Position numbers and translations under genes: made by a program. Below the pieces are notes generated by a model that worked only from the letters and a program-made list of their open reading frames with translations, was not told the DNA's origin and ran no database searches. Of a stretch of 64,000 bases of DNA, positions 7,601-22,030 are shown piece after piece (position 1 is the stretch's first letter; each line of letters starts with the position of its first letter). Origin of the DNA: Camelus ferus (Eukaryota); contig NC_045696.1 in assembly GCF_009834535.1 (NCBI RefSeq), positions 63,924,001 to 63,988,000 on the forward strand, given 5' to 3'.

Positions 7601-9166
7601 ATAACCACCATAAGCTATGCAAAAAGTTAAAAAGAAATAGTCTACAAGAGCATTTATCTTCAAGCAAAGTAAATTATAAAATAAAGCAATACATTTGCTT
7701 TGAAGCCTATTGCATAAAATGAAATCCATACAAATTCCCAGAGATCCAGTCTCTTGTTTCTTCTATATTGCAGAGCTCCTAATCATTTATCAATTACTAC
7801 TCATTTATCACCCTGGCAGGATTTTAAGGGAATTATCCAAGTCAGCCCTAAACAGGTTTCTCCTTTACCAAAGCAATCCTAGGCCATAACAGAAAAGAAC
7901 AGAGATGCAGGCCTCACCTAACTGATCTAGGCAACAAGAAATCTTGTCACTTGAAAACCACACTTCCATTCCTTAACAGAGCCTCCTTCACCCCAGATAG
8001 ATTAGCTCCTCTCTGCACAATAACTCTATCTGCATTAAGGGCCAAGGTGTAGGCTCAAAATAAGCTGTGCATCATAGGTTAATTTTTATTCAAATTTTTC
8101 TCCCCAGCAGGTATAGTCAAGGGGGTCACTTGGTTAAAATAATGCCAATGGAAAAGGTATCAAAAATGATCAAATTAAAAGTTAAAATACACATGCACAC
8201 ATATACACACATTTTGAAATGTTTTCTCCAAAAGATCAAGTTAAAAGACGAAAGAAAAAATCTTTTGAAAATATAATTCAAACCTGGAACATCATGTAAA
8301 AAGTTCAAAGTTGAAGGACAGGAAACAAGATGGAAACCTACACACAGGAATTATTTTCCTCCTGCTTCCCAAATGAACTATTTACTTCAATGTATTAAAA
8401 TCGTAAAAACTCTCAGTATTTAATTTTAAAATGTTCATAGAATATTTTTCCCAGATATCTGTCTATCTAGGTATTAATTTTTTAAAAAATTCCAAGGAAG
8501 CAGTTATCTTACCAATTCCAAAAGAAAATGTCAGCAATTCTCCTAAAACTTTCATAAGGATTTTATTACATGTATTGAAATTAACATATCCTAAATAACC
8601 CCATACATAATTCTGTTGACTACCAATGTAACAGAAATCTATTTATCTACTATTATCCCCATCACTGTAACGAACTTGCTATTCCCTTAATATTTCCCCT
8701 GAATGTATGTCATGAAATATTAGTTCCTAGATGATATTTCACGGAAAAGGGGTTCTGTTGTTAAACAAATCTGGAAAACCCTGCATACTCTGACTTATCT
8801 TAGAGATTCACAATGCACACGGGTATATAAAGGTCTGAGAAATTCCAGGGAAAAGAAAAGAAGCCTGATTTGTTTTACTTATACCAGCTTTCCCCCACAT
8901 ATATTTAACAACAAAACCCTTTGTTGAGGACAATCCCTGAAACTAATGCTTCACAGACACGTTTGAGGGAAATGGGCTCCTCCCATTATATTTCCAGAAC
9001 TGTTACATAATACGCTGCATTTTATACCAAGATTAATAACAATACCTTTGTAGGATGCTTGTATATTTGTTCCTCAGATGTTACCATTTTCAAATCTTCC
9101 AGGTAGATAAAAACTTTTTAAAATCTTTCCAGACTATCTATGTGAAGAATGCTCCCTTACACTTGC

Positions 9167-9234
9167 CTTTTTATAACGCTTGTCACTTTCAGATCCAGGA
9201 TCTGTTGCTCTAAATGCCGTTTCTCCAGGTGAAC
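9167..9234 (-). CDS. OPA1: OPA1 exon 5 (68 nt), encodes the OMA1 S1 cleavage site (FR|ATD)
   Basis: ctttaag|GTTCACCTGG...TATAAAAAG|gcaagt (GC donor); (G)SPGETAFRATDPGSESDKRYKK. Confidence 0.95.
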
Positions 9235-9969: not shown

Positions 9970-10471
9970 CTGTGAAAAATCAGCAAAGGGGGAAATAGAA
10001 ATGTAAAATTTAACAGGAATGAGCAAACAAAGATGTCTGAGACCTCAGATTTATAGCATGATAGGGCAGAATTGGGCAAATACACCTGGATTAACCTTAG
10101 TAAATTCTGTTCATTATGGTCTACTATAATTAAATTTGTTTTAAAATCACCAAATTGGCTCTAACCAATTAGGAAAAGTAAACACACAGGAAGTCTCACC
10201 TACTTGTCAAGAACAAATGCTATTTTTTTTCACTGACTAAAGCCAAGCATGTTTAAGTTCTTGCAAATTTTCATTTTGTTTGGCCAAACAAAAATTAAAA
10301 CCAGTGAGCAACAAAATTTCGTGTGTATCTTCTTTTTCCAAAAACCTAGTCTTTATTTGTACTAAATGTTTTCATTTAAAACATGGTAATAAACAAATGA
10401 ATACATCTTAAGTATTTTTCCTCTGTATTTTCTGACATTTTAAACGAGATCAAACACAAGTCCTTCCTTAC

Positions 10472-10579
10472 CTGTGGTGAAAAAGTCCTTCAATAAGCTG
10501 AGGCTTTCTGCAATCTTGTCAAAGTCAGGTGCCAATTTTGCAAGGTCTTCTGAATTAGGAAGGGCTTTTCTAATCTTCT
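10472..10579 (-). CDS. OPA1: OPA1 exon 4 (108 nt, alternatively spliced)
   Basis: ttctccag|AGAAGATTAG...ACCACAG|gtaagg; (E)[35 protein letters not shown]. Confidence 0.97.
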
Positions 10580-11092
10580 CTGGAGAAAAGAAAAAAATAC
10601 ATACTCTCAAAATTAAGAATTTGATTATTAAAACATACAATTTAAATAACCACATATAAATTTAAATAAAAATATTTTTTCCATTTTTCTCCATTACAAC
10701 TACAACTGCTACATATATCTGAAACAATGTGTTATTCTAGTGATATTCTGCAGGCCATGAAAATTTTTAAAAAATATTCACCAAACATATGGCTTAGAGG
10801 AGTATCTTTAATTTATAAGTTAAATGCCTTGGGACAGAAGCACTGTATTAATGTTAACACTGGATTGGTGTATAGAAGTACCTTTTGGAAGTCATAGCAA
10901 AGAGGCAAAGAAAAAAAAATCATTTGTAGCACCTTGCCTGAATACAAAAAAAAAAGTGATGAAATCCCAGTTCAAGTCCAAGAACAGAATTCAGTTACTT
11001 TCCTCTCTCCTTTCATATTCCCTAAGAAGATTCACACTTGTTACCATTTCAAAACATAAAAAGCTGTCTACAAGCCCAAGACAAGCCCTTAC

Positions 11093-11213
11093 TTTTGCTA
11101 GCTTTATCTATAAAGTGACTAAGTACTTTCATTTATAAATACGCAACAATTTTGTCAAAGTTTGGTACAACTTTATGTGTCTTCTAAACTAGGAAGGGCT
11201 TTTCTAATTTTCT
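11093..11213 (-). pseudogene. Degenerate tandem duplicate of OPA1 exon 4 (pseudo-exon, 121 nt) in intron 3
   Basis: ttttgtcttttccag|AGAAAATTAGAAAAGCCCTTCCTAGTTTAGAAGAC...GCAAAA|gtaagg; 32/35 identity to the start of exon 4, about 80% over the first ~69 nt; flanking intron also homologous; in-frame TAA at 11175-11173. Confidence 0.88.
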
Positions 11214-11261
11214 CTGGAAAAGACAAAACACACAAAGTTTCTCAAAATAAGAATATGTATC

Positions 11262-11465
11262 AGATTTTATTCTAAGTGCTTTAAAAGCATTAACTCGTTT
11301 AATCTTCAAGGCAATCCTACAAAACAGTTATCATCGAGCCCACTTTACAGATGAGGAATGGGGCACAGGGGGTGAGTAACAGGATCGGAGCACAGAACAA
11401 AGTGCAGGGTCAGGTTTAAGCCTAGGCAGGCCAGCTTCAGAATTCAGGCTCTCAGCCACTGTTCT
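11262..11465 (-). mobile_element. MIR SINE abutting the exon-4 duplicate
   Basis: ctaagtgcttt...tttaatcttca...cccactttacagatgaggaa. Confidence 0.75.
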
Positions 11466-12282
11466 GTGGTACTGGCGAATGTATCAAGTTAAAAAGCTCT
11501 CCTCATAAATGTTAGAAAAATAATTTCAAAGAGTGCTTTTCCTGCAAATATCTTTGTCAAGGCAGCAGTTTTATCTTTAAGAAAGTGCTGTGAATAGTGC
11601 ATGCAGAGATTAAATCCACCCCCATATACACCTAAGCTAAAATCTAAAAAAGCCAACACAAAGCCTAAATAAAAGACTTGACGAAAATCATTTCATCAGG
11701 AAAAAAAAAATTTTTTTTAAAAGATCACCATGACTTACTGGCAATCACAACTATCAAATATACTTTTTTCTCTTCTGTTATTAGAAAAGGGGAACAATGG
11801 CTGACTAACAGGAGAAGTTACTCTGGACACCAGCAGTCTTGTAAGGAATCCGGTTACAAGAAGTACAGATAACTAAGATATCCAGTCAAAGAGGGTTAAT
11901 TAGGTAGGGCACAGTACATCTGTTCTGCGTAACATACAACACTGAAAATGATGTTCAAGAAGGTGGCTTGGCAGTATGGAAAATGCTGACAAATGTGGAA
12001 GGTAGCAAAAGAAAAGAGAGCAAAGTGTGTGTTCACTATGACTATATACTTTTTAAAAAGGAAACGAAAATAATAACCACATACACAAAATAGGTACAAT
12101 GAAAAGAAACTGTTTCTTAAGGATAATGGCAGCTGTGTTAAAGTGATGAACTAAGGGATAATTTTTTTTCTTACCAATTTTTTCTCTATTAATTTTATCA
12201 TTAAAATAAAACTGCTACACCTTGAACTTATGAGTTAAGAAACTCTCTCTTTTCTAAAGATAAGACGAATAAAAGTATTTTA

Positions 12283-12393
<111 letters not shown>

Positions 12394-12980
12394 CTAAAAG
12401 ATAAAAAAGCATGTTAATCAAATGCTCTGAATACCACACAAAATACAAAGAAAAAGTACTTAAATTTCTTTAGTTAAAACACACTAATCTACTAAGAGTG
12501 ATGTATTATGTTCAAAATTTTTAGAACAAAGTGGCCTCAGCTCTTCTAAAAATAAATTAGCAGACAACCACATAAAACATGTAAATGTTGCTTTACTAAA
12601 TATAGACAGTGTAAAAATTCAAAATATATTCCTGTTTCAAACAGGTTTCATGATTTGGCTTTAAACACTGAGGAATAGAAGCAAGACAAACCAGGGGTCA
12701 GGACATCTTGCCTCTGGTCCCAGAGCTGCCAAGAAGTGGTTGCATGAACATGCCACTTACTTCCCTGCCTGTGCTACTAAATGGCAAAACCGAAACTCAA
12801 ACCTAAGTGTGCTTACTCCCAGCTCAGAGCTCCTTCCGCTAGGCCATTAGCATCTCCTATAGTAAGTAACAGTCAGAGAGCATTTTCCTATTAGCACCAG
12901 TAAAACAATTCAGCACACGGTAGACACTCAGAAAACATCTAATTGTATTCTACTGCACTAAAGGAAAATGATATACGCTA

Positions 12981-21539: not shown

Positions 21540-22030
21540 AGGGCCAGGTCAGAGCCCGCACTTACCAGGCCACAGCGGCCCGGCGTAGCCGCCACATCTC
21601 ACCGGCGACGAGGTCACACAGGCGCCGAGGCGGCCACGCGGGAGCCCCGGTGTCAGCCCCAGTCCGGCTCCTGCTCCACGAATGACCCAGGAAGAGGCCC
21701 TCAGGAACAAGGGCACACAGCAGCCTCTGCGGCCCTCCCAATGGCGAATGGACTTCCGCGAGAGCCTGCCCGGCACCCGTACTCGGTCCGTCAGGAAAAC
21801 CAGCCCCTCCACCCTTCCTAGGCGGGCAGCACAAATAGGCCGGGGAGGACTCGCGCATGCGCTCAAAGCCTCTGGAAGGACCAATGTATTTTCGCTTCCC
21901 TCACCGGGCCTCGCCCTGCCTCGCCCTCTTTGTTTCCGGGTCGGAAAGGTGAATTCGAGCCTCTCAGGCTAAAGGCTTGGAGAGGGGACGGGTCGAGATG
22001 TTGGGCTGGGATTGGCGGGTTGAAGGGCAT
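21540..22030. promoter_or_regulatory. OPA1 CpG-island promoter and 5'UTR
   Basis: Locally high GC and CpG; NRF1 palindrome GCGCATGCGC 21853-21862; ETS/GABP CGGAAGT (minus) 21752-21758 and CCGGAA (minus) 21934-21939; YY1-like CAATGGCG 21739-21746; CCAAT 21881-21885 and ATTGG 22011-22015; no TATA box seen. Confidence 0.9.
21566..21597 (-). CDS. OPA1: OPA1 exon 1 coding part (32 nt, MWRLRRAAVA + TG), start of the mitochondrial targeting sequence
   Basis: ATG at 21597-21595; ATGTGGCGGCTACGCCGGGCCGCTGTGGCCTG followed by donor GTAAGT. Confidence 0.98.

Follow-up and report, generated by a model that had tools for sequence, protein, structure and literature searches.

The window analysed here is a 64,000-nucleotide stretch of Camelus ferus DNA (contig NC_045696.1, positions 63,924,001 to 63,988,000) and includes, on its minus strand, the 5' part of OPA1, whose exons were located by a spliced fit of P0002, the camel OPA1 protein (Table 1). 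The target of this fit comprised the window and the 80 kb below it, and 28 of 28 junctions had a unique solution. Exon 2 matches Camelus dromedarius OPA1 isoforms at 100% identity and alpaca at 98%, and on this evidence the gene is assigned as camel OPA1. Likewise, the translation of exon 4 is identical to P0002. Exons 4, 4b and 5b are the three alternative exons that define OPA1 isoforms. The exon 5 donor (window 9160-9167, minus strand), as fitted to the camel protein, is a GC (AAG|GCAAGT), the sole GC among the 28 solved OPA1 junctions, and a GT is present 6 nt downstream of it (GCAAGT|GTAAGG).

Table 1. Features of the OPA1 region, in transcript order (window coordinates).
Feature	Position	Strand	Basis	Remark
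OPA1 exon 1	end at 21566	(-)	P0002 spliced fit	
OPA1 exon 2	13359-13041	(-)	P0002 spliced fit	
OPA1 exon 3	12393-12297	(-)	P0002 spliced fit	its donor would join the copy
Upstream intron segment with pyrimidine tract	11216..11257	(-)	local alignment	homologous to the intron before exon 4
Acceptor AG of the copy	11214..11215	(-)	alignments	equivalent in position to the exon 4 acceptor
Decayed exon 4 copy (putative pseudoexon)	11093..11213, 121 nt	(-)	direct repeats, alignment, own-genome search	
First in-phase stop (TAA) if the copy were spliced after exon 3	11173..11175	(-)		starts at nt 39 of the copy
Donor-like GT (AAA|GTAAGG)	11091..11092	(-)	own-gene PWM score, U1 duplex energy	
Downstream intron segment	11078..11090	(-)	local alignment	homologous to the start of intron 4
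OPA1 exon 4, functional	10579-10472, 108 nt	(-)	P0002 spliced fit	parent or sister of the copy
OPA1 exon 4b	9969-9916	(-)		
OPA1 exon 5	9234-9167	(-)	P0002 spliced fit	
OPA1 exon 5b	968-858	(-)	P0002 spliced fit	

Between exons 3 and 4 lies a second, decayed version of exon 4. The bases just before it (11213-11093, minus strand) read ...ttttgtcttttccAG (upstream context ...tgtgttttgtcttttccAG), and those just after it read GTaagg. Two direct repeats connect the copy and exon 4, one of 50 nt at 88% identity with a spacing of 634 and one of 28 nt at 79% identity with a spacing of 636. Local alignment of the copy region (11257-11078) with the exon 4 region (10623-10453) gave a score of 121, compared to a mean of 37 (sd, 4.9; maximum, 59) for 200 block shuffles, and 130 of the 159 aligned columns were identical, with 21 and 12 nt unaligned on the two sides. 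The own-genome search returned E=1.2e-13 and 79% identity over 111 nt. The original prediction of a paralogous exon 4 copy at 11213-11093 is thus real. Its distance of 634 bp upstream of exon 4 is correct as a start-to-start measure, but the gap from the end of the copy to exon 4 is 513 nt.

The homology is not confined to the exon. Upstream, it reaches 44 nt into the intron (31 of 36 aligned columns identical between 11257-11219 and 10623-10587), in agreement with the approximately 40 nt of homologous intron claimed earlier. Downstream, it extends about 15 nt past the GT of the copy, and the block 11094-11078 is identical to 10469-10453 at 14 of 17 positions, which bears out the proposed resemblance between the sequences following the two donors. 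No further homology outside 11257-11078 was detectable by local alignment when an extended 634-nt repeat unit was sought. The spacer that lies between the two exon versions (471 nt) is single-copy and matches itself alone in the genome; a transposon origin of the spacer was rejected on that ground.

Both splice dinucleotides described earlier, the AG and the GT, are present in the copy. However, the status of the GT as the counterpart of the exon 4 donor is ambiguous. In both alignments, the exon 4 donor GT faces a CT in the copy, and the present GT of the copy is found 9 nt further on. A GT-to-GT alignment of the two donors would be an equally possible alternative. As the tool alignments and the GT-to-GT alignment place the GT of the copy differently, the AG is the only clearly ancestral site, and the GT may be secondary rather than the ancestral donor.

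Because the intron flanks on both sides are homologous (44 nt upstream and approximately 15 nt downstream), the copy is, as the original prediction held, a DNA-level duplication and not a retrocopy. By its alignment, it is a tandem duplication of a block of about 180 nt, placed on the same strand and upstream of exon 4. The only other exon-4-like place in the genome, according to the own-genome search, is a processed OPA1 retrocopy (L003; G000 contig C4, about 38,307,109; locus coordinates 940-1662). In this retrocopy, exons 1 to 5 are joined without introns and without exon 4b, at 81-90% identity to the parent exons and with deletions. Like L003, the intron 3 copy is non-functional in appearance, of broadly similar divergence and a carrier of the ancestral GTT codon. 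In contrast to L003, which has no introns, it has intron flanks and is located inside the gene; therefore, only the intron 3 copy could meet the spliceosome in OPA1 pre-mRNA.

One codon provides a bound on the age of the duplication. The copy and L003 both read ATTGTTG (Val, GTT), whereas the present camel exon 4 reads ATTGCAG (Ala, GCA). Among the best 120 of 1693 protein matches, the only entries with DKIAESL in exon 4 are 3 from Camelus and 3 from Vicugna, and all other exon-4-containing entries among those 120 have DKIVESL. The Val-to-Ala change in exon 4 (window 10472-10579) is common to camel and alpaca. As the copy keeps the ancestral GTT, the duplication is likely to be older than the Val-to-Ala change and hence than the camel-alpaca split, on the basis of one codon and two bases. 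The Jukes-Cantor (JC) distance between the copy and the exon 4 region is 0.21 over aligned columns, most of it presumably on the branch of the copy, since exon 4 is constrained. If mammalian neutral sites change at about 2e-9 per site per year, such a distance suggests an age of tens of millions of years, with a large error. In a three-way comparison of the copy, exon 4 and L003, 21 sites were unique to the copy, 5 to exon 4 and 1 to the retrocopy, 2 sites differed in all three and 62 were invariant (36 gap columns excluded); polarity derived from this retrocopy is noisy.

Coding capacity has been lost from the copy. It has a 2-nt deletion after base 37 and several insertions in its 3' third, with a net gain of 13 nt, and in the phase of exon 4 (phase 1, set by exon 3) it contains five stops, a TAA followed by four more. 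Because of the deletion, the insertions and the five in-phase stops, it cannot code. The claim that the copy is frameshifting and TAA-terminated held, as its 121 nt leave a remainder of 1 on division by 3 and the phase-1 reading ends in TAA. The predicted product of exon 3 joined to the copy would stop at codon 13 of the insert, corresponding to residue 162, and this stop is 80 nt before the 3' junction of the copy. By the 50-55-nt rule for nonsense-mediated decay (NMD), a transcript including the copy is therefore predicted to be NMD eligible. TAG triplets number six in the copy and one in exon 4; about two would be expected from the intron 3 rate (0.016 per nt). This TAG content fits decay towards intron composition.

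No OPA1 protein among the 120 surveyed (exon 2 query, best 120 of 1693 matches) contained two exon-4-like segments; by fuzzy matching, one segment was counted in 111 of them and none in 9. Exon-4-skipped isoforms accounted for 5 of these best 120 of 1693 matches. The search covered proteins of 187-2000 aa, longer than truncated products of about 162 aa would be. A mutually exclusive exon pair was rejected: the copy fails in this role because it differs from exon 4 in length (121 versus 108 nt), has lost the frame and contains stops, and 0 of the best 120 of 1693 proteins have a second segment.

The copy is probably the inert relic (pseudoexon) of an old tandem duplication of exon 4, now decayed and skipped or included at noise level, where "inert" follows from priors and neutral expectations and is not a measurement. 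A block of approximately 180 nt, made up of the exon with about 44 nt of intron before it and about 15 nt after it, was copied upstream on the same strand. The copy has since acquired the 2-nt deletion, the insertions and the five in-phase stops, with loss of coding. The spliceosome would skip the copy or include it at noise level only, and any transcript including it would reach the stop at codon 13 of the insert and be removed by nonsense-mediated decay. The features of a tandem-exon-duplication relic that were found here are homology, location on the same strand in the neighbouring intron, homologous intron flanks and lost coding capacity.

The splice signals of the copy were compared with those of the gene itself. 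A crude PWM was derived from the real OPA1 splice sites in this genome (29 donors and 29 acceptors); these were scored leave-one-out, and those of the copy were not. On this scale, the copy acceptor (6.0 bits) scored above 16 of 29 real acceptors and the copy donor (8.5 bits) above 19 of 29 real donors. Pyrimidines occupy 13 of the 17 positions from -20 to -4 of the copy acceptor, compared to 9-16 in real OPA1 acceptors (n=29). Pairing of the copy donor with U1 is weaker than that of 28 of 29 real donors, with a duplex energy of -5.0 kcal/mol versus -11.5 kcal/mol for the exon 4 donor. With both splice sites in the mid-range by the own-gene PWM and a length of 121 nt that suits exon definition, some inclusion is plausible, which counts against the relic reading.

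However, sites of this quality are common in the gene. Within 75,006 nt of OPA1 introns, 228 AG and 34 GT sites score at least as high as those of the copy, and 17 AG..GT pairs separated by 50-250 nt, the copy included, score at least as high on both sites. The chance that four given bases all remain unchanged in a neutral copy is 0.32-0.63 at 75-89% per-site identity. As 32-63% of neutral copies would keep four bases, the survival of AG and GT is unremarkable. We infer that the AG, the tract of pyrimidines and the GT have survived as leftovers, to an extent expected under neutrality. A search for Rfam families beside the copy yielded none, with a single sub-threshold match of 18 bits against a gathering score of 62. 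The neutral relic, offered in the original prediction as a caveat, is the reading favoured here.

One of the 16 other AG..GT pairs is an exon-like element between exons 5b and 6, outside the window (L006, about 8517-8618, minus strand; window coordinates -1382/-1427 to -1483). The reading frame of this 57- or 102-nt element is open; it has strong PWM scores and encodes ...PWNCRKALVSRLLISLFVR, and nearly the same peptide is present in a predicted Weddell seal OPA1 protein (P0028). The element occupies the same interval as the published human OPA1 NMD 'Exon X', with no stop here. As the peptide of this cassette is found in the seal protein, elements passing the PWM filter can be real exons. The filter consequently has some power, but passing it proves nothing.

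Preservation is uneven along the copy. As stated earlier for the acceptor end, 32 of the first 35 exon bases match exon 4, and a block across the AG is identical at 37 of 40 positions. In the 5' part (11257-11179), 68 of 76 columns are identical, versus 62 of 83 in the 3' part (Fisher p=0.023, with the split chosen post hoc). The acceptor end is indeed better kept; however, with a post hoc p value, this is a weak argument for function. The acceptor end may be under constraint. Equally, the contrast could result from indel-rich decay of the 3' part, as the 3' third of the copy carries most indels, or from gene conversion.

Gene conversion is compatible with the relic reading: transfer of a short tract (approximately -45 to +35 relative to the acceptor) between exon 4 and the relic, at some time later than the duplication, would make the acceptor part look young without selection. 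In its favour, a distance of only 634 nt separates the partners, which share a strand; JC distances are 0.11 (5' part) and 0.31 (3' part); and about 40 nt of the well-kept stretch are intron, noncoding in either partner. However, GTT, absent from the present exon 4, is retained in the copy just beyond the putative tract and is also carried by L003. Within the tract, a site reading AAA or AAG (one of the three exon differences) groups the copy with L003; therefore, any conversion would be old. Conversion and constraint are indistinguishable within one species. Overall, we consider such an event possible but unlikely.

A poison exon is defined as a conserved, alternatively spliced exon with a premature stop whose inclusion leads to NMD, according to the available part of PMC8819188. 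A premature stop or frameshift on inclusion, one of these features, is found in the copy (TAA at codon 13). If a regulated share of transcripts took up the copy between exons 3 and 4, OPA1 dosage would be tuned through decay triggered by the TAA. Several observations are consistent with this: the copy has an AG, a pyrimidine tract and a GT, and its two sites score in the mid-range by PWM, inclusion of its 121 nt would shift the frame and place a stop 80 nt ahead of the junction, preservation is better at the acceptor end than elsewhere in the copy, and, as described in the accessible text of PMC11564677, OPA1 already uses one NMD exon between exons 5/5b and 6. These points are countered by the commonness of equal-scoring sites in OPA1 introns (16 other pairs), the weak U1 pairing (-5.0 kcal/mol) and a dinucleotide retention within neutral expectation. 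Furthermore, a literature search on OPA1 found no mention of such an exon. Overall, the copy is doubtful as a poison exon. Likewise, it appears rather improbable that the copy was retained since before the camel-alpaca split as a second, hitherto undescribed non-productive splicing switch in OPA1, whose well-kept acceptor end and stop-containing body would serve as poison or decoy and set OPA1 dosage or exon 4 inclusion. A regulatory interpretation of the copy is possible and makes it a candidate only.

The acceptor of the copy, as a decoy 3' splice site or part of a decoy exon, would bind U2AF/U2 unproductively and slow the removal of intron 3, thereby influencing intron 3 retention or the inclusion of exon 4. 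Decoy exons are a described class (PMC8819188, in the portion available), and the signals of the copy are an AG, a tract and a GT that score in the mid-range by PWM, together with weak U1 pairing. Preservation is best at the acceptor end, the donor is a poor partner for U1, and exon 4 is alternative, being skipped in 5 of the best 120 of 1693 OPA1 proteins. Nevertheless, 16 other pairs score as well, the heterogeneity reaches p=0.023 with a post hoc split, and the 3'-third indels or gene conversion explain the preservation equally well. The RNA structure at the copy was also not unusual (folding z=-0.22). Overall, we regard a decoy role as quite unlikely.

Chance similarity or an assembly artefact can safely be set aside, as the alignment score is 17 sd above the shuffles, the own-genome search gave E=1.2e-13, and 79-82% identity with indels is unlike a collapsed or duplicated assembly; in addition, among 24 sequencing runs listed, 4 held all sampled words of window 10400-12420 and 13 held half or more, although the best word-holding runs may be the assembly's own sample, and the 3 runs on record as RNA (0.38-0.50 of sampled words) were given no weight. 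Two metagenome-contig loci from a 21-base pattern scan were rejected as chance matches, having only 23-24 nt in common with the window.

Tandem exon duplicates are reportedly the raw material of mutually exclusive exons, as Letunic, Copley and Bork are said to have proposed in 2002. Unannotated tandem exon duplicates in introns have since been surveyed by Ivanov and Pervouchine in 2022 (PMC9013439, as described in its available part). Like these, the intron 3 copy is intronic, on the same strand, homologous to the adjacent exon and its flanking splice-site regions, and derived from a local DNA duplication. Unlike duplicates usable as mutually exclusive exons, it is 121 rather than 108 nt long and has five stops. 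OPA1 is absent from 10 supplement files of the human MXE catalogue (PMC5740500). No report of an exon 4 duplicate in OPA1 was found in the literature searched; the supplements of PMC9013439 might list a human counterpart.

Within OPA1, the closest functional comparison is Exon X, an NMD exon and the target of the antisense oligonucleotide STK-002. In the sections available, PMC11564677 supports this exon by RT-PCR, RNA-seq and cycloheximide and reports its conservation in several mammals. Similar to Exon X as described there, the copy is intronic and exon-like, belongs to the same gene, and would add a premature stop and lower productive mRNA. In contrast to Exon X, which that text places in the 5/5b-6 interval, it is located in intron 3, derives from exon 4 and is known here from sequence alone. 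The identification of the copy as the known NMD exon was rejected, as the copy lies between exons 3 and 4 and Exon X between exons 5/5b and 6.

Pathogenic deep-intronic cryptic exons have also been described for OPA1, arising from intron 4b variants (PMC5155325) and from the intron 16 variant c.1608+622A>G (PMC7960924), as far as the accessible parts of these reports indicate. Like these cryptic exons, the copy would be a dormant, exon-like sequence a small change away from splicing. However, in the cases described there the splice sites are created by patient mutations, whereas the AG and GT of the copy are already in the camel reference, and the copy is, unlike them, a duplicate of a real exon.

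Dominant optic atrophy results from OPA1 haploinsufficiency, and a therapeutic strategy that blocks one non-productive exon already exists (PMC11564677, in its available part). If a regulatory role were true, a second NMD or decoy element beside exon 4 would offer a further handle on OPA1 dosage and isoform choice and would illustrate cleanly how a duplicated exon can become a regulator. Should the age of the copy reach the limit set by its divergence, other mammals may carry the element too, among them species used as models of dominant optic atrophy. On the best reading of its sequence, however, the copy is a previously unannotated relic of tandem exon duplication. As it stands, it would be a well-documented instance of something ordinary, local exon duplication followed by decay, and it is of use chiefly for annotation and for dating events in the camelid lineage.
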